A program made the position numbers and the translations under genes. From an uncultured Holophagales bacterium (GTDB taxonomy: Bacteria > Acidobacteriota > Thermoanaerobaculia > Multivoradales > UBA5704): a stretch of DNA of 64,000 nucleotides. Positions 4,139 to 45,457 of this stretch are shown here, one piece after another. The stretch is from assembly GCA_963842525.1 (NCBI GenBank), contig CAWJGT010000003.1, forward strand, positions 320,001 to 384,000. The letters run 5' to 3'. A model generated the notes under the pieces. That model was given only the letters and a program-made list of their open reading frames with translations, ran no database searches and was not told the DNA's origin. How positions within the stretch are numbered: position 1 is the first letter of the stretch; each line of letters begins with the position of its first letter.

Positions 4139-4247
4139 CCCAGGGTTCACACCCTGGGCTACCGAATGACGCCCTCCGGGCTCGCGGGAACCAAGGATTC
4201 CAGAGCCCGGAGGGCGGAACTGGGTAGCCCCGGGTGTCAACCCGGGG
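4139..4247. repeat. REP-like palindrome family A (CCCAGGG-N6-CCCTGGG with GCCC..GGGC hairpins), inverted doublet
   Basis: cccagggttcacaccctggg ... gccctccgggc ... gcccggagggc ... ccccgggtgtcaacccgggg; related copies at about 18040-18133, 28290-28440, 29048-29150 and 46999-47098. Confidence 0.75.
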
Positions 4248-31192: not shown

Positions 31193-32528
31193 ATGGCAGT
31201 CGGAGCTGTGGGCAGGCCCGCGGAGGAGCCGCGGCCGGCGCAAGCCCGCAAAGAGGCTCGCACGATCCAGATCTCGCGCGGCGCCGTGGCCCTCTACGTG
31301 GCCATCCTCCTCGGCCTGGCGCTCCTGCTCTGGTCGGCGCGGCGGGAGCGGGAGTCCCACGTCCAGGTCCCGGACCTCCGCAGCTTCGAGCCCATGCTCC
31401 CGTCGATCGCGGGGCTGACCGGCTCGGCCATCCTCCCGGGCAACCGCATCGAGGTCCTGCAGAACGGCGACGAGTTCTTCCCCGCCCTCTTCCGCGACGT
31501 CGCGGCGGCCCGGGAGACGATCAACATCGAGACCTACGTCTGGTGGCAGGGGGACGTCTGCCGGCGCCTGGCCGAAGCGCTGGCTGCCCGTGCCCGCGAG
31601 GGAGTGCAGGTCCGGCTCACCCTGGACGCCGTCGGCTCGAAGAACGGGGACGACGAGCTCTTCGAGCTGATGGAGAAGGCAGGCGTCCGGATCGCGAGGT
31701 TCCACCCCTTCGAGATCCAGGACATCGGGCTGTTCAATAACCGGACCCACCGCAAGCTCGCCATTTTCGACGGCAAGGTGGCCCACGTGTTCGGCCACGG
31801 CATCGCCGAGGAGTGGACCGGCAACGGCCAGGACGAGAAACACTGGCGCGACACCGGCGTGCGGGTCGAGGGCCCGGTCGTGCACGACATCCAGGCCATC
31901 TTCACCGAGAATTGGCTGGAGCAGACCGCCGAGCCGCTGGTGGGGACGAAATTCTTCCCGCCGCTCGCCGCGGTGGGTCCGGTGCGGGCGCACGTGACTG
32001 CGCTCGCCCCAGGGCGGCGTCTCCAGGCTCGAGCTGCTCTACAAGCTGGCCATTGCCACGGCCCAGAAAGAGCTGCTCATCCAGAATCCCTACTTCATCC
32101 CGGACGGCGAGGTCGTCGGCCTCCTCGAGGGTGCGGTCCGCCGCGGCGTGGACGTCCGGGTCATGCTGCCCGGCGTGGTCACCGACAGCTCTGTCGTCCT
32201 CCACGCCGGGCATTACCATTACGAGGAGCTGCTGGGCAATGGGATCAAGATCTACGAGCATCAGAAGACCCTGACCCATCAGAAAGTGATGGTGATCGAC
32301 GGGATCTGGTCCCACGTCGGCTCCTCCAACTTCGACGACAGGTCGCTCGACATCAACGACGAAGCGAGCCTCGGGATGATCGACCCATCGGTGGCGGCGC
32401 AGCTCCAGCAGGCCTTCAAGCGGGACCTCGCCCACTGCCGTCCGGTGACGCTCCAGGAGTGGCAGGAGCGGTCGCTCTGGCACCGGCTCGTCGACCGTGT
32501 CTCCTACACGGTCAACGAGCAGCTTTGA
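31193..32528 (+). CDS. Cardiolipin synthase (PLD family), copy 1; frameshift near 32010
   Basis: Two HKD motifs: HRKLAIFDG and HQKVMVIDG. Confidence 0.88.
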
Positions 32529-32999
32529 AGCTTAATTTAACCAAGACGAAGTAAGAAGGCCACATTGACGATCTGAAGCTGATCCCCGGCGAAGCGGCCG
32601 CTGGTCACCGTGCCGGTCAGCCCTGCGGCCCCGGCGGCGCTGGTGAAGCCGAGCAACAGGTTCGTGAGCTCGACATGGCTCTCGCTGTCGTCCGCCCACA
32701 CGATATCGAGCGTGTAACGTCCCCGGCCAGCGCTGGCGGATCACCAAGGAGACGCCCGTGGGGCCGGTGCCGTCCGCCCTGCGCCTCGCCCCCTTCTACA
32801 AGAAGTACCTGGACGGCGACGGCATCCCCATCGTGAGCTCCGACAAGGTGTCCGACCGGGCGTTGCTCCAGGCGAGGTTCCTCGCCCGGCAGATGCTGGT
32901 CCGCCTGCCCGCCGTGCGCGAAGAGCTGAAAAACAGAGAGCTGACGAAGGGTCGTAGCATCTCCACCCTAGAGATGATGCGCACGGCGTTGCGGGTTTG

Positions 33000-34266: not shown

Positions 34267-35538
34267 ATGGTCGAGATTCCCGTCTGGCTGCTCGTCGTCA
34301 TGGCCTCTTTGATCCTCTTGCTGGGGTTGATGCTCTTCAACAACCTGCGGGAGCGGAATTTCCACGTCAAGGTACCCGACATCGACTCCTTCGAGGAGGC
34401 TCTCCCTTCGATCGCCGGCATGACGCGGGCGGTCCTCCTGGACGGCAACAGCGCGGAGGTCCTGCAGAACGGCGACGAGTTTTTCCCCGCCCTGCTCGAA
34501 TCGATCCGCACGGCCGAGAAAACGGTCCACCTCGAGACCTACGTCTGGTGGAAGGGCAAGATCTGCGAAGAGGTCGCGGAGGCCTTTGCCGAGCGCGCCC
34601 GCGCCGGCGTCGAGGTACGGGTCATGATCGACGCGATCGGTGGCTGGCAGATGAAGCGCCGCCTGCGGAAGCTGATGGAAGAGTCGGGCGTCAAGCTGCG
34701 CCGCTACCACCCGATCCGCTGGAATGACATCGGGCAGCTCAACAAGAGGAGCCACCGCAAGCTGTCGATCTTCGACGGCCGCCACGGCTACGTCTGCGGC
34801 CACGGGATCTCCAAGAAGTGGGTCGGCCACGGCCAGGACAAGGACCACTGGCGCGACACCGCGGTGCGCCTGCGGGGGCCGATCGTCAACGCCCTGCAGT
34901 CGGCCTTCTCCCAGCACTGGGTGGAGGAGACGGGAGAAGTCTTCGTGGAGGAGAAATACTTCCCGGACCTCGAGCCCGCCGGCAACCTCCGGATGCACAT
35001 GATGTCCGGGGCCCCCCTGGGTGGCGTCTCGGACCTGGAAATGCTGTTCAAGATGTCCCTCGCCGCGGCCCAGAAGGAGCTGATCATCCAGGACCCGTAC
35101 TTCATCGCGGATCCGGAGACGGTGGATCTCCTCAAGCGGGCGGTCCGGCGCGGCGTCGACGTCAAGATCATGGTGCCCGGCTCGGTCACCGACAGCCCCT
35201 TCGTCAGCCACGCCGGCCACCGTCATTTCTCGGAGATGCTGAACAGCGGGGTGCGGCTCTTCTGCTTCGAGAGAACCCTGATCCACCAGAAGATCATGAT
35301 CATCGACGGCGTCTGGTCGCACGTCGGCTCGACCAACCTCGACGACCGTTCCTTCGACATCAACGAGGAGGCCGGCGTGGGCATCATCGACGAAGGGATC
35401 GCCAGCCAGCTCAAGGCCGCCTTCGAAGAAGACCGCAAGGCCAGCATCGAGCTGAAGGCGGAAGAGTGGGACCGCGCCTACAACCTCCGCCACCGCGCCT
35501 TCGACCGGCTCTGCTACCTGCTCAGCGGCCAGCTCTGA
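34267..35538 (+). CDS. Cardiolipin synthase (PLD family), copy 2
   Basis: HRKLSIFDG and HQKIMIIDG; close paralog of 31193-32528. Confidence 0.92.
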   Translation: MVEIPVWLLVVMASLILLLGLMLFNNLRERNFHVKVPDIDSFEEALPSIAGMTRAVLLDGNSAEVLQNGDEFFPALLESIRTAEKTVHLETYVWWKGKICEEVAEAFAERARAGVEVRVMIDAIGGWQMKRRLRKLMEESGVKLRRYHPIRWNDIGQLNKRSHRKLSIFDGRHGYVCGHGISKKWVGHGQDKDHWRDTAVRLRGPIVNALQSAFSQHWVEETGEVFVEEKYFPDLEPAGNLRMHMMSGAPLGGVSDLEMLFKMSLAAAQKELIIQDPYFIADPETVDLLKRAVRRGVDVKIMVPGSVTDSPFVSHAGHRHFSEMLNSGVRLFCFERTLIHQKIMIIDGVWSHVGSTNLDDRSFDINEEAGVGIIDEGIASQLKAAFEEDRKASIELKAEEWDRAYNLRHRAFDRLCYLLSGQL

Positions 35539-35639
35539 GCGGCGATCCACTCTGCGACCAGACTGGCTGCGGCTCATCTCTCCTCCCTGAGAGTTGTCGC
35601 GACGTCGCTGTGCTCGCACTTGGGGTAACCCGCGGTGTC

Positions 35640-36205
35640 GCAACGAACGGCGACCACGTCTCTGCGAAGCTCGCTCTGTCGCAGGTCATCCTACGCTGCG
35701 ACAGTGTCCCTTTGCACGGAAAGCCCGCCGATAGCCGCCAGCGAGCCGTGCCCCGGCTTTGTCGCGCCGTCAGCCCGCGAACGCCCAGCGGCGAGAAGGC
35801 CGCGACAGTGTCTCCTAGCGCTGCGACAAGACTACCACACAATATGACAGAGCCGGGAAGCTTTAAAACAGAGTCCGCCGAGCTGCGACAAGGCAAGGAC
35901 GCTACGCGACAGATCTCGATGACTCTGAGACATTGTCCGGGCATGCCGCGACGAATCGTTGAGCCGCTGCGACAGAACGCCGAAACACTGAAACGGAATC
36001 TCGGGACTCTGTGGTGAACAATCGACATATTGCGACAATGCAAGCAGCCTCCAAGCTTTTGCCAGGAGACATGCGACGATGTAAGCTCACTCTGTCGCAG
36101 AGGAAGGAGACCGTGCGACAATGCGAGCTTGCACTGCGACAGCGTGAGGTGACGCTGCGACATTGCCCGAAGATCTGCGACGCATCGCCGAGATGACGCG
36201 ACAAA
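35640..36205. repeat. Degenerate 21-bp periodic repeat region (core TGCGACA)
   Basis: ctgcgaca/acgcgaca/ctgagaca recur at 21-bp spacing. Confidence 0.7.
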
Positions 36206-36795
36206 GAGAGCAGCGCTGCGAGCGCGGGCGTCCCGCCCGCCTTCACCAGGGCGTGGGGCCGAGATCAAGCCCTGCACGACCCAAGGCGAAGAAGTACCTC
36301 GACCTCGCGAGTGCTGCTCGCCTTCCGGAGCGCAGACTCGAGACTGGGTACGCCGGGAGTGCATATCGCGACGTAGAAGACGCCGGAGATCCTCCGCCCA
36401 GGTGCTCCGATCTCACGGAAGGAAATAGGGATAGGCCCCCTCTTGCGTGAAGGCGTTCGGAACCTTATCTGGTCGCCAGAGACGTCTAAGCGCGATCCGG
36501 GATGCCTTATCGTCCTTCGCAGGTCGCGTTGACTCCTGCCGGAGGGAGGGGGTATGCTCTCTAAGTTGAGGAAGAAGAACACGTTGAAGGGAAGACGCGA
36601 GGAACGGCGCCCCGTCTTATACGGCGCGTAGAAGCCCATAAAGAGAATCGCTGAGTAAGGCGGTTGAACTAAACCGCTACGCGGCGGTGCCCTCCGAGCC
36701 GAATTTCGCTTTTTTTAGCCGATTTCTTCTCCAAGACGACAAACGTTTCTGATCGGTCTACCTTTCGGGCTGTACTTTCCCGAAAGGAGGACCCC

Positions 36796-37650
36796 ATGAC
36801 AGAGATGCGTCGACGGATGGAAGAGGAGTTGAAGCTGCGGGGCTACAGCCCGCGCACACATGAGGCGTACATCCACTGGGTACGCCAGTTTGCCGCGCAC
36901 TATCGTCGGCCGCCCGAGCAGATGGGAGCTGAAGAGGTTCGCGCCTACCTGGTCGATCTTCTCGAAAATCGTAAGCTGGCGCGGTCGTCGTTGGTTCAGG
37001 CCTTGTGCGCTTTGAAGTTTTTCTACAGCCAGGTGCTGCATCGGCCCTGCGAGGTGGAGAATCTACGCTTTCCCCGGCAAAAGAGGAAGTTGCCAACGGT
37101 TTTGAGCGAGCCGGAGGTGAGGCGGTTGTTGGAGGCGGCCGAGGACCTGCGGGAGCAGGCGATCCTGATGACGCTGTATTCGGCGGGCCTGCGCCTGGGC
37201 GAATTGCTGCACCTGCAGGTTAAAGACATCGACAGCACGAAGATGCAGATTCGAGTTCGTCAGGGCAAGGGTTCCAAGGATCGCAACGTCGTGCTGTCGC
37301 GGACTCTGCTGGAAGTACTGCGACGCTACTTCCTGCAGTACAGGCCCGAGGTTTGGCTGTTTTATGGCGAGACGCCGCAGCGGCCACTCAATGAACGGAC
37401 TGTCCAGCGGATGGTGCGTCGGCTCAGTGAAAAAGCTGGCCTGCGCCAGGGAGTCAGCACCCACACGCTGAGGCATAGCTTCGCCACCCATCTTTTGGAG
37501 CGTGGCACGGAGGTACCGTATATCCAGGAGCTTCTCGGGCATCGCAGCGTGCGCACCACGATGCTGTATACGCGGGTCAGTCCGCGAGCGCTGAGCAAGG
37601 TGATCAGTCCCTTGGACCGGCTGGACTGGAGACCTCGCGAGTTGACATAG
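36796..37650 (+). CDS. Tyrosine recombinase with N-terminal SAM-like domain (not IntI)
   Basis: AGLR, GKGSKDR, HTLRHSFATH, LGH, Y; lacks the IntI-specific insertion; AGGAGG RBS. Confidence 0.93.
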   Translation: MTEMRRRMEEELKLRGYSPRTHEAYIHWVRQFAAHYRRPPEQMGAEEVRAYLVDLLENRKLARSSLVQALCALKFFYSQVLHRPCEVENLRFPRQKRKLPTVLSEPEVRRLLEAAEDLREQAILMTLYSAGLRLGELLHLQVKDIDSTKMQIRVRQGKGSKDRNVVLSRTLLEVLRRYFLQYRPEVWLFYGETPQRPLNERTVQRMVRRLSEKAGLRQGVSTHTLRHSFATHLLERGTEVPYIQELLGHRSVRTTMLYTRVSPRALSKVISPLDRLDWRPRELT

Positions 37651-37659
37651 GACGGTGCC

Positions 37660-38856
37660 GTGTCGGGCACCTCCCGCTTGGAGGTGGCCCACATCTTCCG
37701 TCTCTATGGTGAGGAGTATCGGCAAGGACACCGACTCTCCCGGCCGCAGTTGCGGGCCATGCGGGCCATCGAGATCTGCCGCACCGCCTCTCTGGGCGGG
37801 CATGTGGACGAGTGTGACCAGTGCGGTGTACGCACAATCAGCTACAACTCCTGTCGCAACCGACACTGCCCGAAATGCCAGGGCCTGGACAGGGATCTCT
37901 GGTTGGAGCAGCGCTGTGGCGAGTTGCTGCCGGTGCCGTACTTCCATGTCGTATTCACAGTTCCAGAAGAGCTCAACCCCCTGGCGCTTGCCAACCCCAA
38001 GTGGTTTTACGACCTGCTCTTCGACTGTGCCGCCAAGGCGCTGCTGGAGATCGCTGCCGATGCCAAGCACCTCGGAGCGCGCATCGGGGTGCTGGCAGTG
38101 CTGCACACCTGGAGCCAGACGCTGCTGCTGCATCCGCATCTGCATTGCATCGTACCGGGAGGAGGCCTGTCGCCGGACGGGCAGAGGTGGATCGCCAGCC
38201 GGCCCAACTACTTCCTGCCGGTCCAGGTGTTGTCGCGGCTGTTCCGCGGCAAGTTTCTGGCCCAGGTCAAGGCGGCTTGGAAGTCCGGCCAGTTGCGCCT
38301 ACCAGAGACTCTGCGCGATCCGTTCACCTTCCAGAACCTGCTCGACCGGCTCTACCGCAAGACCTGGGTGGTTTACAGCAAACCCCCCTTCGGAGGCCCG
38401 GAGCAGGTGCTGGCCTATCTGGCCCGCTACACTCACCGGGTGGCGATCTCCAATCATCGCCTCCTCCGTCTGAAAGATGACCAAGTCACCTTCACCTACA
38501 AGGACTATACCCAGGGCGGCCGGGTGCGAGAAATGACGCTGCCGGTGGATGAGTTCATCCGCCGCTTCCTGCTGCACGTGCTTCCTGAGCGCTTCGTGCG
38601 CATCCGCTACTACGGCCTGTTGTCCAACCGCCAACGTGCGGGCAACCTGGCCCGGTGCCGCGAGTTGCTCGGTGCCCCTCCGTCGGAGCTGTCAGTTGCC
38701 GAGCCACCGGCCGGCGAGGGCTGGCAAGCCAGGCTGGTCCGGCTGACAGGCAAGGATCCGACCCTTTGTCCACAGTGCGGGCGGGGCCACCTGCGGCGGG
38801 TCGAGGAATTGCCTCCCGCTTGCTCGGCGGCCCGGCCTGGGAGGTCGCCGCCGTGA
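37660..38856 (+). CDS. IS91-family (Y2, HUH) transposase with N-terminal Zn-binding domain
   Basis: SCRNRHCPKC, HPHLH, YLARY, RIRYYG. Confidence 0.93.
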   Translation: MSGTSRLEVAHIFRLYGEEYRQGHRLSRPQLRAMRAIEICRTASLGGHVDECDQCGVRTISYNSCRNRHCPKCQGLDRDLWLEQRCGELLPVPYFHVVFTVPEELNPLALANPKWFYDLLFDCAAKALLEIAADAKHLGARIGVLAVLHTWSQTLLLHPHLHCIVPGGGLSPDGQRWIASRPNYFLPVQVLSRLFRGKFLAQVKAAWKSGQLRLPETLRDPFTFQNLLDRLYRKTWVVYSKPPFGGPEQVLAYLARYTHRVAISNHRLLRLKDDQVTFTYKDYTQGGRVREMTLPVDEFIRRFLLHVLPERFVRIRYYGLLSNRQRAGNLARCRELLGAPPSELSVAEPPAGEGWQARLVRLTGKDPTLCPQCGRGHLRRVEELPPACSAARPGRSPP

Positions 38857-39119
38857 GACCTGCGCAGGTCCCTGTGGCGTTGCGACTCTCCCAGAGAGTA
38901 TTGGAGGAGGTGTATCCTCCCGCGATTCTGCGGTACAATGGTGCAAACGAAATCGCTGTGGGAGGAGCCCTTGGCCGGCCACCAACTCCAGGACGAGGCA
39001 TTCCGGTACCGCCAGCATCGCATCGCGGGGCTTTCCCGGAGGTGTGGGCGGTCGAGGCGCGGCTTTCGCCTGCGAATTGATTTGCCATAGCCCGGCAGGT
39101 CGGACTCCCCCGCGGTTTC

Positions 39120-39216
39120 GCTCAACCGGCGTCTATCCGCGGTCCTCCCCTGAGCAGGCGGTGGACTCCGGAGCTGTGTTGTGGGAGGACCCCGGATAGA
39201 CGCTTACACGTTGTGC
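39120..39216 (+). other. attC-like site 0
   Basis: GCTCAAC ... gcgtctatccg/ggtcctccc pairing with gggaggacc/cggatagacgc ... GTTGTGC. Confidence 0.75.
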
Positions 39217-39254
39217 GACAGAAAGATAGAGCTGGTAACCTCCAAGAGTGACGC

Positions 39255-39821
39255 ATGACAGGCAATCGAGCACTTCGGAACCTTACGGATGACCTCACTG
39301 CCAAGCTCGAGGACGTGGAATTCCTCGCCTGCTACTCAGCAGCTATAGCACGCGTCGTTCGGCAGCGCGAGAGATGGGCCAAGTGGCTGGTCGCTGTCGC
39401 CGCATGCGTACCATTCCTTGCTCGTCTCCGGGCAATCTCAGGACCTACCGTCGACTGGCTGGTGGCGATCGTACCTCTGTTGGCGATTGGACTTCCCATT
39501 TGGAATCCAGAGAAAACTATTGAAGCTGCTTCCACACTTCACGGCCGTTATCTTCAGGCGCTCCCGCCACTTCGAGCGCTTTGGCGCAGACTACGAGACT
39601 TCGAGGGCCCGAGCGAGGCGACCGGCACCCTTGTTAGCGAGGTCGCGGGTGAACTGAAGACTTTGGAACAGGAACTTGCGTCGATGAAATCGGAGGCATC
39701 AACCCTGCCGGACATCCGCAAGCTCAAACTGCGGTGCAAGTCTTCAGTTCCCAAGTACAGCCTTCTCCAAACAGAACCACCCCGGGGGCCTGAGGATGTT
39801 GGATACAAGATGGGCAACTGA
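39255..39821 (+). CDS. Cassette gene: two-TM membrane protein, SLATT-like
   Basis: Two short hydrophobic segments then a helical C-terminus; flanked by attC sites. Confidence 0.65.
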   Translation: MTGNRALRNLTDDLTAKLEDVEFLACYSAAIARVVRQRERWAKWLVAVAACVPFLARLRAISGPTVDWLVAIVPLLAIGLPIWNPEKTIEAASTLHGRYLQALPPLRALWRRLRDFEGPSEATGTLVSEVAGELKTLEQELASMKSEASTLPDIRKLKLRCKSSVPKYSLLQTEPPRGPEDVGYKMGN

Positions 39822-39833
39822 GGCGGTATGGTC

Positions 39834-39895
39834 GCACAACCCAGCTCCTCCAGCGGACGGCTAACGCCGCACGCTGAGGCGCGGCAGCGTTGGGC
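39834..39895 (+). other. attC site 1
   Basis: GCACAAC (complementary to upstream GTTGTGC) ... GTTGGGC. Confidence 0.85.
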
Positions 39896-40020
39896 GCAAG
39901 GATAGCGCTGAATTTCGGCCTTACGGAAGAAGTCCTGTTGTTGGCCTCAAAGCGAAGGTACCTCGTCGCATCACCGTCCACCCGAATCGGCGGGATGGGC
40001 ACCTACCGAGGAGGAATGCC

Positions 40021-40395
40021 ATGTCACACCGGATTAGCCGTTCCTCAGTTCTGATCTGTCTCACTCTGCTGGTTCTCTCGCCACTCAAGGGTAACGCTGT
40101 CTCAGCTACCGCGGACGACCCGCCGGAATCAGTTACGGCCGTGGTGACTCCGACGGTGTCGCCGGACTCTGAGAACCTGGTCGAGGGCTTGCCCGGCCTG
40201 TTCGAGAGAGGGGTGTGCCCCAAGGACGGCCTGGGAGTCCCAGCGCCGATCCAGACGGTGGACCAATGCGCCACCTGTACTCCCTCTATTCCCTGCCCTC
40301 CTGGGATGTGTAGGTACTGCGCTGGTGGACCTTACTGCAATTCATCAACCCAGTGCACGTGCCAGTGCATTCCACCATGCTTCGAACCTTTGTGA
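40021..40395 (+). CDS. Cassette gene: secreted Cys-rich protein
   Basis: GAGGAGG RBS, signal peptide, 10 Cys in the C-terminal ~42 aa. Confidence 0.75.
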   Translation: MSHRISRSSVLICLTLLVLSPLKGNAVSATADDPPESVTAVVTPTVSPDSENLVEGLPGLFERGVCPKDGLGVPAPIQTVDQCATCTPSIPCPPGMCRYCAGGPYCNSSTQCTCQCIPPCFEPL

Positions 40396-40397
40396 GC

Positions 40398-40451
40398 GCC
40401 CAACCCCGCCGATCGAGCGGACGGCAAGCCGCCGCTCATCGGCATAAGCGT
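40398..40451 (+). other. attC site 2, interrupted at GT/T by a group II intron
   Basis: GCCCAAC (complementary to upstream GTTGGGC), hairpin, then GT|intron|TGAGAGC. Confidence 0.8.
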
Positions 40452-42487
40452 GTGCGCCAAGACAAGCTTGGCGCTTCTTGCAGGGTGTAAGTCCCTGCCG
40501 GGTAAGGTCTAACCAACCACCCGTACCGAGTGTTGCAGATCTGGCGGAGGAGAGTCGACGTCGACGAACCGAACAAGAGGTCTGGAGCGTACACAGGGAA
40601 CCATGTAGGCCGTAAGGGAGACCGCACCTCCCCCAGGTCTGGTACAGCCCCGAAAGCGCCGATTACAGATGCAGGCGGCGATCGTTTACGTTTGCGAGAA
40701 GCCCACGCGAAGGAATCGCTTTGGTGAGATTCTGGAAGCCTGCCGGGGTCATCAGGACATGGCATGCATGGAGAGGAGCGTCGAAGAACTTGGGAGACCC
40801 CATTGATTCCTGCACTCTTAGAGAGGCAATCTGCAAGGCGCGAGGCTGGCTAGGCACAGAAGGGGAAACCCGGACCCAGAGAGAATGCCTGGCGCCTAAA
40901 CGGAGGATCGACGAGAGATGACAGGTAGGCGACCTGAACCGAAAAGGCAAGGGAGACTGAAGATCATTGGGGAGTCGGATCAGCCCATAGTACTCCGAGA
41001 ACGGGAGAGCCGTTCACATGGGGAAGGAGCTGACGGGAACCCGTAGCCCGCAAAGGAAACATGACCCAGATGCGACAGGCTGGACAACTCATGCCAACCT
41101 CCCTGCGGGGAATAGCGAACAAGGCAAGCTCTGACAAGAACCACCGTTTCGGCAATCTCTTTGGTCTGCTGACCATGACGTTCCTTCTGTCCTGCTGGGA
41201 GCGAGTCAACAAGAAAGCTGCCAGCGGCGTGGATCGGGTTTCGGCCCGGGCTTACGCGAAGGATCTGGCGGGAAACGTAAGAGACCTTTGGGAGCGTGTG
41301 AAGCGGGGTAGTTACCGGGCGAAGCTGGTCCGGCGACGTCACATTCCGAAGGAAGGGAGTACAGCGACTCGGCCACTGGGGATCCCGGCGGTGGAGGACA
41401 AGCTGCTCCAGATCGCAGTCTCCCGCATTCTCAATGCCATCTACGAGCCGATCTTTCTGCCGTGCAGTTGGGCATACAGGCTCGGCCGTAATGCGCGGGA
41501 AGCAGTGCGGACGCTGAAACAGGAGCTTCAGTTTGGTTGCTACGGTTACGTTGTGGAGATTGACATCAAGGGGTTCTTCGACCGGATCGACCATGAGAAG
41601 CTCATGGAGATGCTCGAGCTGAGAATCAACGATCGGCCGTTCCTGCGGCTGATCTGGAAATGGCTCAAGGCGGGAGTATTGGAAGAGGGTGGGAAGGTGA
41701 TCCACCCGGACACGGGCTGTCCGCAAGGTAGTGGGATATCACCCGTGCTTGCCAATATCTACCTTCACTACGTTCTGGACCTTTGGTTCACGGAGGTGGT
41801 GAAGCCCCGGTGTAAAGCGCGGGCCTTCATGTGCCGGTTTGCGGACGATGTGGTGTTCGCCTTCCAGTGGCATGAGGAGGCCGAGCGGTTCTTCCGGGTC
41901 CTGCCGAAACGGCTGGCGAAGTACGGGTTGGAGCTTTCGGCGGAGAAGAGCCGGATGGTGCGGTTCAGCCGGTTCCAACTGGGCAAGAGCTCGGAGAGGT
42001 TCGACTTCCTCGGGTTCGAGTTCCGCTGGGTGAAGGACCACAAGGGAGTGGCCCGGGTGACGTGCCGGACATCGCGCAAGCGGCTTCGGGCGTCGTTGAC
42101 CAGGGTGACCGAGTGGATCAAGGCCGAGCGGCACCTGCCGGTACGCCAGTTGGTGGGGGCGTTGAACGCGAGGCTTCGTGGGCACTATAATTACTACGGG
42201 GTGATCGGCAACTACGCAAGCCTATGCTCATACTTCAATCAAGCGAAACGGCTGCTGATGAAGTGGTTGGGGAGGCGGAGTCAAAAGAGCCGGATGAGCT
42301 GGGTGAAGTTCAGCGCCCTGCTGAAGCGATTTCCACTGGAGGAACCCTGGATCGCGGAGAGTCGGCATCGGCAGATGGTTCTTGTCTGAGTTGCTGAGTG
42401 CGGAAGCGAGGGTAACCGAAGAGCCCGGTGCGGAAAAACCGCACGCCGGGATCTGTGCGGGGGGCGCTTCGGCGTCCCTACCGCGAC
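40452..42487 (+). mobile_element. Group II intron (about 2.0 kb)
   Basis: 5' GTGCG; domain V gagcccggtgcggaaaaaccgcacgccgggatc; domain VI ending ctaccgcgAC. Confidence 0.9.
41061..42389 (+). CDS. ltrA: Group II intron reverse transcriptase/maturase, no endonuclease domain
   Basis: RPLGIP, DIKGFFD, GCPQG, RFADD, FDFLGF, LRGHYNYY. Confidence 0.93.
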   Translation: MTQMRQAGQLMPTSLRGIANKASSDKNHRFGNLFGLLTMTFLLSCWERVNKKAASGVDRVSARAYAKDLAGNVRDLWERVKRGSYRAKLVRRRHIPKEGSTATRPLGIPAVEDKLLQIAVSRILNAIYEPIFLPCSWAYRLGRNAREAVRTLKQELQFGCYGYVVEIDIKGFFDRIDHEKLMEMLELRINDRPFLRLIWKWLKAGVLEEGGKVIHPDTGCPQGSGISPVLANIYLHYVLDLWFTEVVKPRCKARAFMCRFADDVVFAFQWHEEAERFFRVLPKRLAKYGLELSAEKSRMVRFSRFQLGKSSERFDFLGFEFRWVKDHKGVARVTCRTSRKRLRASLTRVTEWIKAERHLPVRQLVGALNARLRGHYNYYGVIGNYASLCSYFNQAKRLLMKWLGRRSQKSRMSWVKFSALLKRFPLEEPWIAESRHRQMVLV

Positions 42488-42722
42488 TGAGAGCACGAGA
42501 TGGATCCCCGAGGTTCTATTCAACACGGCTAAAGCAATCCTTCGGGAAGCTCAGCGGGCGCTGGATGCTCCGCGGCCAGAACATGTGATGTGGGACAGCA
42601 CCAGCCCGCCGGCACCAGTCGCTCGACCAATTCGGCCTACAACTCGTCTGCTCCGCTATGCTCTCCAGGCCAAGCTGCCTGTTGCGGAGGACCTCTACCT
42701 GGAGCTGTGGTAGACTCTGGTT

Positions 42723-43034
42723 ATGGTCGAGGTTCTCGTCCGAATCAAGCGTGCGGTCCTTTCAGGGCATTATGCCTTCAGCGAGAAGGCGCGAATTGAG
42801 ATGGAGGTCGACGGCCTCACTGACCTCGATGTCGCTGAATCCATCCTCAACGCAGTCGCCATCTACAAACGCCTGCGGTCGCGAAGTCCCCTTCATCGTG
42901 GCCAATTAGAGTACCTCTACGTGATCCAGTCCACAAACCTCGAAGGTATGATGATATACTCGAAGGGCAAGCTCGTTCGCGAGCATGGCGAAGATCATTT
43001 CTACTTCCTAATTTCCTCGAAGAGAGCTCTATGA
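42723..43034 (+). CDS. Putative toxin (DUF4258-like)
   Basis: YAFSEKARIEM..YFLISSK; overlaps the downstream Zn-finger gene. Confidence 0.6.
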   Translation: MVEVLVRIKRAVLSGHYAFSEKARIEMEVDGLTDLDVAESILNAVAIYKRLRSRSPLHRGQLEYLYVIQSTNLEGMMIYSKGKLVREHGEDHFYFLISSKRAL

Positions 43035-43312
43035 GAACACCGCTGAGTAACGAAGGATTTTCAGTTTCCGTATGCCCGACGTGCGGTAGCTCGGCTATTC
43101 GGAAGATTTCTGGAAGCTGGTCCGGAAACTATAAAGGCGAGACCTATAGCGTGAAGGCGCTAGAGTATTACGCCTGCCCAAATTGTGACGAGAAGGTCTA
43201 TCCGCCTGAGGCGATGCGACGGATTCAACACGCTTCTCCAGCTTACCGGAAATCGGCTGCTCGGCGAGCAGCGCGGAGGGCGCCCAACCCGGGGCCTCAA
43301 GCGGACGCCTGA
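43031..43312 (+). CDS. YgiT/MqsA-type zinc-finger protein (putative antitoxin)
   Basis: CPTCG ... CPNCDEKVY. Confidence 0.75.
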   Translation: MRTPLSNEGFSVSVCPTCGSSAIRKISGSWSGNYKGETYSVKALEYYACPNCDEKVYPPEAMRRIQHASPAYRKSAARRAARRAPNPGPQADA

Positions 43313-43342
43313 CGGCGCCGCTTATGCCCGATCCCGTTGTGC
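43282..43342 (+). other. attC site 3
   Basis: GCCCAAC..aagcggacgcc-tgac-ggcgccgctt..GTTGTGC. Confidence 0.85.
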
Positions 43343-43541
43343 GCCAAGGTCAGGATTGCACTGGGGACGAGTGGCCCCGTCGTCCCGACACCCTGTTCCG
43401 GCACCGGCATGTGGTTACGGCACCCCCGAGAATGACCGGCTACCCGACAAGGGGCGCCGAAATTCCGGTGGTGATGTCCTCGATGGCCCTCGATGGCCCA
43501 AGGGCTTGCCAAGCTCTCCTTCAGTGGCGTATAGTCAGGTC

Positions 43542-43860
43542 GTGTGGTTCGTAGAGACCTCTGTCTTTTCTGGCCAGCTCTATGAGCAACTCCCTGATGA
43601 CGACTACCGCTCTCTTCAACTGGCTCTTACTTTGCGGCCCGAGCAAGGAAAGCTGATCCCAGGCAGTGGCGGGTCTTCGCAAGATTCGTTGGGCTCTTCG
43701 TGGCAAAGGGAAGCGGGGTGGCCTCCGATTGATCTACTACTGGGATGCGGGCGAGGATGTGATCTACTTCCTCTACCTTTATCCGAAGAACCAGCAGGCG
43801 AACCTCAGGCCCAATCAGCTCAAGCAACTGAAGAAGGTCATCGAGGAGGATTTAAAGTGA
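43542..43860 (+). CDS. RelE/HigB-like toxin (frameshift near 43670)
   Basis: FVETSVF..PEQGKLIPGSG + LRKIRW..GKRGGLRLIYY; TTGCCA-N18-TATAGT promoter just upstream of GTG. Confidence 0.8.
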
Positions 43861-44195
43861 AGGACTCTGATTTTCAGCAGATGCTTGCCAGTGTCAAGGA
43901 GGCAGGACGTATCAAGCGCGGGGAACAGAAGCCTGCGCGTAAGTTCGAGGTAAGAGCGGAAGACGTGAAGGCAATTAGAGCTATGCTCAACAAGTCGCAG
44001 TCTGAGTTTGCTCTTATGATCGGTGTGAGCGTATCTACTCTCCAGAATTGGGAACAAGGGCGGCGACAGCCGGAGGGTCCAGCGCGAGCCCTCCTGAAGG
44101 TGGCTTCCGTGAATCCGCGAGCTGTTGCATCCGCACTGGATCCGAGCCAGGCGCCCAACCCGGGGCCTGCAGCGGACGCCTTGCGGCGGCGCTGA
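43857..44195 (+). CDS. HigA/NadS-like HTH antitoxin
   Basis: SQSEFALMIGVSVSTLQNWEQGRRQPEGPARALL. Confidence 0.88.
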   Translation: MKDSDFQQMLASVKEAGRIKRGEQKPARKFEVRAEDVKAIRAMLNKSQSEFALMIGVSVSTLQNWEQGRRQPEGPARALLKVASVNPRAVASALDPSQAPNPGPAADALRRR

Positions 44196-44214
44196 GGCCC
44201 ATCGCCCGTTAGGC
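44153..44214 (+). other. attC site 4
   Basis: GCCCAAC..cagcggacgcc-ttgc-ggcggcgctg..GTTAGGC. Confidence 0.85.
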
Positions 44215-45243: not shown

Positions 45244-45457
45244 TGAAGGTTTGAAGGGGTGTCTGGAGAGTCCTGCGCGAGCCCTGGCCCCTCACCCCCG
45301 GCCCCTCTCCCATCCGCACTCCCTTCCCCCGGGAGAGGGGGGAAATACACGATCAGGAAGGTGTGAGTGCTGATGGGAGAGGGGCCCGGGGTGAGGGCTT
45401 TCCTGGGACCGCCTCAACCTTTCCAGACACTCTCTGAGAGGCTCGTGCTGACTGACC

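Follow-up and report, generated by a model that had tools for sequence, protein, structure and literature searches.

An IS91-family element with cassette-like ends and an integrase-like recombinase, found repeatedly at putative integron attI sites of a Holophagales bacterium

We analyzed a 64,000-nucleotide stretch of the genome of an uncultured Holophagales bacterium (assembly GCA_963842525.1, contig CAWJGT010000003.1, positions 320,001 to 384,000; hereafter the window) and focused on a 2.55-kb unit on its forward strand, from 36663 to ~39210, that carries genes for a tyrosine recombinase and an IS91-type Y2 transposase. A preliminary description of the sequence had taken the unit for an integron cassette packaging two enzymes. 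We found it to be an insertion sequence (IS) of the IS91 family, ISAzo26 group, and consider it probable (roughly 70%) that it is an autonomous element of that group with cassette-like ends, inserting site-specifically at the crossovers of integron modules composed of a promoter (Pc) and an attI site. The class of the element and the kinship of its recombinase to the integron integrase IntI are already known. Its conserved cassette-like ends and repeated homing to attI appear to be undescribed in the literature searched, as are the ends and targets of the ISAzo26 group in general; the supplementary tables of PMC13181058 may bear on target preferences.

Results

A Discrete Mobile Unit of the ISAzo26 Group

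The open reading frame (ORF) of the recombinase (36796-37650; Pfam Phage_integrase, 1.2e-41, and Phage_int_SAM_4) ends 9 nt ahead of that of the IS91-family Y2 HUH transposase (37660-38856; Y2_Tnp, 3.8e-67, and Zn_Tnp_IS91, 1.2e-32), both on the forward strand, and HPHLH and YLARYTH are visible in the translation of the latter. The source genome (G000; 9.9 Mb in 34 contigs, labeled C1, C3, and so on; 96% complete) contains three full copies of the unit, in the window, at C9:1900009-1902559 and at C25:537201-539751, with ~100% identity over 2551 bp, and a truncated fourth at C3:132456-132805. Alignment of the junctions of the three full copies gave a common sequence from (G)TTGAAC through CTTACACGTTG, beyond which the flanks differ: the copies are alike up to ...CACGTTG and continue with TGC, GCC, and GGC. 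The unit is thus a discrete mobile piece. As GTT(G) stands at both borders, the exact cut within it cannot be placed, and the three copies show no target duplication beyond this shared GTT(G).

Some match to the element was present in 41 of the 61 related genomes searched (G labels). Homologs with ~72% DNA identity included a full-length one (G020:C17) and two (G033:C560 and G010:C3) that cover positions 1-2299 and have the hairpin end as a separate match. Beyond these, we collected 508 relatives of the transposase from one genome per species and analyzed the 80 best, a set spanning many phyla. The recombinase gene lies directly upstream of the transposase gene in 78 of these 80. ISAzo26, on the Aromatoleum aromaticum EbN1 plasmid NC_006824.1, is annotated as "IS91-like element ISAzo26 family transposase" and its transposase is 54.8% identical to that of the element. 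It likewise has a tyrosine recombinase gene immediately upstream of the Y2 transposase gene and, at its ends, GTTGGACTAAACCGC on the left and a box complementary to it, GCGGTTCAGTCCAA, on the right, with a long hairpin behind the latter. It differs in that this copy follows a perfect palindrome on a betaproteobacterial plasmid rather than an integron attI, and in having hairpin and core sequences unlike those of the element.

With IS91, IS801, and IS1294 the element shares the HUH Y2 transposase and the organization of its ends: the two ends are distinct, there are subterminal palindromes, a tetranucleotide adjoins the ori end, and the target is not duplicated. The same set of features is described for these elements in the parts of PMC13181058 available, according to which they move by circular single-stranded intermediates; for IS91 that text gives subterminal palindromes, GTTC or CTTG beside oriIS, insertion of a bottom-strand single-stranded DNA circle, and no target duplication. 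For our element we propose such a circle by analogy. Canonical members differ from it in having no tyrosine recombinase, IS91 carrying orf121 instead, and in targeting any GTTC or CTTG, whereas the element is found at one specific type of site.

Cassette-Like Ends and a Conserved Terminal Hairpin

The left, terIS-side end (36663-36679, forward strand, GTTGAACTAAACCGCTA) forms the boundary of the three full copies and of the truncated one. It contains small palindromes and is the inverted-repeat partner of a right subterminal box (39112-39128, forward strand, GCGGTTTCGCTCAACCG) that complements it and includes the R''-like GCTCAAC (39120-39126). Next comes a hairpin on the oriIS side (39129-39203, forward strand), the "attC" of the preliminary description, with 21-nt arms at 39129-39149 and 39183-39203 that are 95% complementary, and then the right terminus (39204-39213, forward strand), consisting of CTTACAC and the crossover or target tetranucleotide GTT(G). 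The motifs named in that description, namely the start (G)TTGAAC at 36663, the R'' box, the hairpin, and GTTGTGC, are all in place. On the left, GCGGTTGAACTAAACCGC occupies 36660-36677. The description's view of both ends as GCGGTT-N6-AACCGC palindromes needs trimming: the palindromes exist, but the outer GCG on the left belongs to the flank and only GGTT-N6-AACC is kept elsewhere. Similarly, the 18-bp inverted repeat that it saw between the ends is present but imperfect, the reverse complement of the right box agreeing with the left end at 15 of 18 positions.

As in an integron cassette, the boundaries of the element lie at G|TT, and the start box TTGAAC is complementary to the R''-like box of the same unit, which is GCTCAAC in the window and GTTCAAC in homologs. 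The hairpin fold is more stable than those of all 200 shuffled sequences on both strands (z = -4.4 and -4.7), and joining the ends by script gave a model with an R-type stem in addition to the hairpin, with folding energies of -36 and -42.9 kcal/mol.

Integron attC sites are imperfectly palindromic and 57-141 nt long; they have R and L boxes, a spacer that stays unpaired, and extrahelical bases. The hairpin of this copy measures ~97 nt from box to box, and its arms of ~20 bp have a single mismatch, in the center, and lack bulges. Homologs in the related genomes end in CCGCGGTTTCGTTCAACC, 2-3 nt, a 20-nt arm, a loop, a second 20-nt arm and CTTAAAC-GTT, after which the sequences diverge. Across 12 aligned right ends the right box is conserved as CCGCGGTTTCGTTCAACC, and 6 of the 18 consensus pairs of the hairpin show compensatory changes; 94.9% of the alignment cells are paired, in comparison with 86.3% after shuffling and 36-49% with slid partners. 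The left end is kept as GGTTGAAC-N-AAACCGC in four loci (L021, L022, L023, and L028) whose upstream sequences are unrelated. Among the loci from other phyla that had enough flanking sequence, 35 of 54 have the left motif and a complementary right box. The preliminary description had proposed comparing homologs for a shared terminal structure, and in this comparison the terminal hairpin and the motifs of both ends proved conserved. The compensatory changes and the conservation at the 12 right ends identify the hairpin as the element's own end. The unit does head an array of cassettes, but the notion of a captured terminal attC falls away: the structure is the oriIS-side end of the IS.

Alphaproteobacterial relatives (L089, L092, L104, L108, L114, L121, and others) end in ...CCAGATTCCC and start with (G)GATTGAAC, and TGAATC or GATTCA motifs occur in both flanks. 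Judged by these motifs, the alphaproteobacterial elements may use a different, palindromic target.

Insertion at One Base of a Repeated Promoter-Bearing Module

Immediately upstream of the element lies the UR module (36460-36662, forward strand), a repeated, promoter-bearing sequence that ends in ...GAGTAAGGCG| at the crossover and that we read as Pc plus an attI-like site. The genome has 12 copies, at C1:538, C1:1231, C3:132330, C3:183306, C3:356500, C3:1117346, C6:254134, C9:136497, C9:1899847, C19:391760, C25:236252, and C25:539904. The two on contig C1 form a tandem pair at its start, spaced at 693 bp, and none of the 12 adjoins intI. The module contains a promoter, TTGACT-18-TATGCT (36529-36558), the only sigma-70-like one found in 36200-39400, followed by a conserved leader of ~110 nt with the invariant block GCGTAGAAGCCC. 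Rfam has no family for the module or for the element's hairpin, the sole match being a chance microRNA (E 0.9). A 25-codon ORF within the module was rejected as a gene, since it is broken in other copies.

Every UR copy diverges right after GGCG|GTT, and all four copies of the element abut this same base. A soil-metagenome contig (run X1), matched to window positions 36300-39500, joins the same element ends to another UR-type site, and both its UR variant and its cassette start are unlike every copy in the assembly, which suggests a further or polymorphic insertion. Two other metagenome runs (X2 and X3) contained diverged relatives only. The runs, made up of assembled contigs that are unable to reveal a circle, gave no circle junction, excision product, or empty-site joint. 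At C3:183075-183163 (L005/L046), within a UR module, the element's hairpin stands alone (97% identity), with neither the recombinase nor the transposase gene; behind it come a repeated, short piece of the UR tail and a cassette. This solo hairpin may have arisen by deletion or represent a miniature element.

These junctions bear on the idea that the unit moves by plain IS91 rolling-circle transposition, guided by GTTN only, and came to the head of an array by coincidence. The right flanks of the three copies are GTTG, those of homologs GTTG, GTTA, GTTC, or CTTA, which resemble the GTTC and CTTG targets given for IS91 in the consulted part of PMC13181058, and the absence of a target duplication also agrees with this mode. 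However, in a genome of 9.9 Mb, a four-base target cannot account for four copies out of four, and the one on the metagenome contig, at an identical base of a module present 12 times, and the element is found behind intI in several phyla. We therefore regard coincidence as very improbable.

The reading of UR as attI also concerns the cassettes that follow it. At 4 of the 10 sites tested, the R'' of the attC of the cassette after UR (or after the element at UR) complements the start box exactly, and at 3 of 10 it is off by one base; the site C1:538 lacks a separate attC ahead of the next UR. The sites C3:1117346 and C9:136497 were not assessed, as their GTT box was missed by the pattern. In translation, several first cassettes after UR start like TIR-domain proteins.

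IntI above the TIGR02249 cut-off occurs in 15 of the 61 related genomes. In these relatives, intI is followed on the same strand, after 350-650 nt, by a similar promoter, a leader of ~120 nt, and a ..AAG|GTT.. crossover; in G020 the first cassette starts with TTACAC and ends in an attC with the R'' GTGTAAC. The presence of an equivalent module after an intact intI, heading the first cassette, argues that UR is a Pc-attI module. The element itself stands at the crossover behind intI in one related genome (G057) and behind an IntI fragment in another (G010). Related elements come directly after intI in Acidobacteriota and also in other phyla, where an IntI more than 50% identical to that of G020 lies just upstream of the element on the same strand in Latescibacterota (L068), Calditrichota (L123), and Bacillota (L103), and upstream on the opposite strand in Ignavibacteriales (L076). 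Among the loci of other genomes with at least ~1 kb of upstream flank, 3 of 45 are flanked by IntI, to which L103 is to be added, and the flanks of 42 of 45 are free of it.

We weighed these observations against the possibility that the unit is a passive cassette, its hairpin a true attC, placed by a host IntI since lost or acting in trans, and its enzymes mere cargo. Its position as first cassette at attI-like sites, the G|TT boundaries, and the complementarity of start box and R'' all fit, and so do the 15 related genomes in which IntI passes the cut-off, several of which have it immediately ahead of the element, and a transposase-only variant at an attI behind an intact intI (L057, below). 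However, the ends and the gene pair are maintained without IntI in 42 of the 45 flanks and on the ISAzo26 plasmid; nearly identical copies occur in pairs elsewhere, two in Latescibacterota (99.6%) and two in Roseibium (99.96%); and the genome studied here has three nearly identical copies and only fragments of IntI. Moreover, the ~97-nt hairpin with its 20-bp, near-perfect arms differs from the attC of this genome, which are 60-70 nt long and bulged. A cassette depends on IntI for its movement and brings no mobility enzyme; the element has a recombinase and a transposase, in a genome with no intact IntI. We thus consider passive carriage unlikely. The occurrence of the same ends and gene pair in ISAzo26, in Alphaproteobacteria, and in mostly IntI-free flanks rather indicates an IS that mimics a cassette than a cassette packaging two enzymes.

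A Recombinase Close to IntI in a Genome with IntI Fragments

The recombinase is the genome's best match to the integron-integrase model TIGR02249, but it matches in two parts, one of 146.8 bits (model positions 4-177) and one of 93.3 bits (236-315), against a cut-off of 265. Its best solved relative is IntI4 (2a3v; 4e-51), ahead of Xer proteins, and a stretch of 60 residues in IntI4 corresponds to 18 in the recombinase. The catalytic motifs GLRLGE, GKGSKDR, HTLRHSFATH, and LGH..LYT are present. The protein is thus IntI-like and lacks the IntI insert, as the preliminary description had recognized, and on both score and insert it falls short of an IntI. In the window, the search with TIGR02249 found no IntI but only the element's own recombinase, which bears out the earlier remark on the missing intI, and genome-wide none of the 21 matches exceeds the cut-off. 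According to the available part of a preprint (10.1101/542381), the closest homologs of IntI are recombinases of IS91 and IS3 transposons, without the IntI insertion; mention of IS91 is absent from the published version (PMC8138268).

The only IntI-like open genes of the genome are those of the element's three copies. Fragments of IntI occur at C9:1070920-1071159 and C9:1073687-1073905, with IS21 in between, and a short piece at C9:849785-849871. The region C9:1070401-1073905 (L019 4402-7905) looks like the remnant of a true IntI that misses N- and C-terminal parts and is split by an IS21-family element with IstA-like and IstB ORFs. A genome with nothing but fragments of IntI fits the autonomy of the element.

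The preliminary description had gone further and suggested that the element may mobilize or assemble neighboring cassettes without IntI. In its widest form, this would have the recombinase stand in for IntI and assemble or shuffle both these cassettes and the other intI-less arrays. The 12 Pc-attI modules that head cassettes in a genome without an intact intI, in which the only IntI-like open genes belong to the element, are compatible with such a role. However, we found no direct evidence of it, and the arrays could predate the loss of intI. The neighboring cassettes carry different, canonical attC of 60-70 nt, unlike the element's hairpin in both size and shape. In the structure of IntI4 with attC, furthermore, it is the IntI insert that contacts the flipped-out attC bases, and this the recombinase lacks. 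We judge this role to be decidedly unlikely.

The Cassette Array and Its Surroundings

Four cassettes follow the element on the forward strand. The first (39214-39895) contains a 188-amino-acid ORF (39255-39821) with no Pfam match and a canonical attC (39834-39895), and its start box TTGTGC complements its R'' GCACAAC. As the preliminary description reported, the GTTGTGC at 39210-39216 matches the R'' of this next attC, being the exact complement of GCACAAC at 39834-39840. The second (39896-40460) contains a 124-amino-acid ORF (40021-40395) and an attC at ~40398-40456, of repeat family D5. Cassettes 3 and 4 (42488-44214), with attC at 43282-43342 and 44153-44214, carry an MqsA-like zinc-ribbon gene and RelE-like plus helix-turn-helix genes, respectively, according to Pfam. 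The genes of the array are thus of kinds common in cassettes. The attC of the four cassettes are 60-70 nt long, with bulged stems, and fold like textbook attC. We discarded the idea that this type of attC is limited to the window, the pattern used having been too narrow; canonical attC follow most UR modules.

Between the second and third cassettes, just after the second attC, lies a group II intron (40460-42487, forward strand, start approximate; Rfam group-II-D1D4-6 at 40488-40759 and Intron_gpII at 42419-42487) with an ORF for RVT_1 and GIIM domains (41061-42389). It is oriented as the cassettes, whereas introns inside integrons usually oppose the cassette direction, as stated in the available text of PMC9229058. 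The last attC is followed by a GNAT gene and a PEMT-family gene, and by no other attC. An inverted repeat (CCCTCACCCCCGGCCCCTCTCCC...) with 33-nt arms that are 94% complementary lies at the array's far end (45289-45397), where G+C content returns to ~0.70.

In a complete integron intI stands beside attI; here, the sequence upstream of UR consists of TGCGACA repeats and a PLD-like gene, and the array is an attI-headed cluster of attC without an integrase. The repeats, which form the upstream part of this intI-less platform, fill a noncoding region of ~700 bp (35540-36240) and occur in both orientations. Exact TGCGACA is found 21 times in the window (7.46 expected), with 11 of the copies in the 527 bp of 35636-36162. 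The region has ~75% identical counterparts at C9:1898744-1899426 and C3:1116372-1117055, always upstream of UR. Similar repeats, TATGCGACAG and TATACGACAG, separate intI from the promoter in G057, and repeats of the type ATATACAGAC were seen ahead of the element in L068 and L103. Such repeats may be binding sites for a recombinase or a regulator. A 280-amino-acid ORF on the minus strand (35522-36364) was considered as a gene and rejected: its translation looks noncoding, no frame is better conserved, and Pfam gives no match, so the region was left as noncoding repeats. Just upstream of the platform are PLD-like paralogs (31193-32554 and 34267-35538) with 72-76% DNA identity. Elsewhere in the window, Rfam Acido-Lenti-1 has five matches above the gathering score, at 4139, 28291, 29104, 46999, and 47054, which fits an acidobacterial host.

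Discussion

The element resembles an integron cassette in its G|TT bounds, in a start box complementary to an R''-like box and in a 3' imperfect palindrome, and it occupies attI in front of other cassettes, a position in which Pc can drive its genes. In contrast to a cassette, it carries two mobility enzymes of its own, its hairpin coevolves with its genes across phyla, including in integron-free places, and its arms are long and near-perfect, whereas the attC stems of this genome are short and bulged. Taken as a whole, the earlier interpretation survives in part: the autonomy that it proposed agrees with a genome that has only fragments of IntI, but the unit is better described as an IS mimicking a cassette than as a packaged cassette.

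How an IS91-family element could reach attI can be sketched from its ends and enzymes. By analogy with IS91, the transposase would release a single-stranded circle in which the hairpin end is joined to the left end. In the joined molecule, the left TTGAAC and the right GTTCAA or GCTCAAC box would pair into a stem of the R''/R' type around the hairpin, with the junction at G|TT, so that the ori-ter junction may fold into an attC-like structure. The element's IntI-like recombinase, or the host's IntI where there is one, could then recombine this junction with attI at G|TT, after which the promoter of the module might transcribe the element's genes. A broader form of this scheme sees ISAzo26-type elements in general as self-mobilizing cassettes, with an attC-analogous circle that the recombinase integrates into attI, and gives them a common origin with IntI and attC; the recombinase may then still act on integron sites in this genome, a possibility raised by 12 Pc-attI modules in the absence of an intact intI. 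We offer this broader form tentatively, as less probable than not by a good way.

Several observations weigh against an autonomous IS homing to attI. The identification of UR as attI draws on its position and on cassette boundaries, not on similarity to a tested attI. In one related genome (G003) the element starts 4 nt past the intI stop codon rather than at the usual crossover. At a further locus (L057, in G046:C5, with an intact intI at 1641640-1642578), the attI-type crossover behind intI is occupied by an IS91-like transposase that lacks a recombinase gene but has the left end GGTTGAACAGACCGCTTCGCGG, so that the recombinase is not needed to account for the occupation of attI there. The pattern search did not detect the pair of ends in 19 of the 54 assessable loci, and the GATT ends and other flanks of the alphaproteobacterial relatives show that attI targeting is not general for the group. 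At 96% completeness, the assembly could also have missed an intact intI. The L057 variant and the alphaproteobacterial ends and flanks count, in addition, against the recombinase as the enzyme that integrates the circle.

Among previously described mobile elements, homing to the recombination sites of integrons is also a property of IS1111-attC elements and group IIC-attC introns. Their targets are attC hairpins, which they enter by means of DDE-type transposases or by reverse splicing, whereas the element studied here goes to the attI crossover and carries an IntI-like recombinase. Both kinds are mentioned in the available part of PMC9229058, which also describes ISShvi3, an IS91-like element in the variable regions of Shewanella integrons that lies inside an integron by an attC-like site and is presented as a "new gene cassette structure". 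We compared it by this description only: it is one case of interruption by an IS, and the same part of the account contains no analysis of conserved ends, attI homing, or a recombinase.

The origin of integrons is unsettled, especially how the integrase came to recombine attC as folded single-stranded DNA. The element unites a recombinase from what are reported to be the closest relatives of IntI, a transposase from a family for which insertion by way of a bottom-strand single-stranded circle was recently shown, and ends built on the logic of a cassette, and it occupies attI crossovers in several phyla as well as in a genome without a working IntI. If the recombinase does integrate a folded junction, the element would provide a concrete, testable model for the origin of IntI and attC, and a new route for occupying, and perhaps maintaining, integron platforms. 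If it does not, the element is still a clear case of an attI-homing insertion sequence that borrows the cassette promoter. It may thus link two kinds of mobile DNA, IS91 and integrons.

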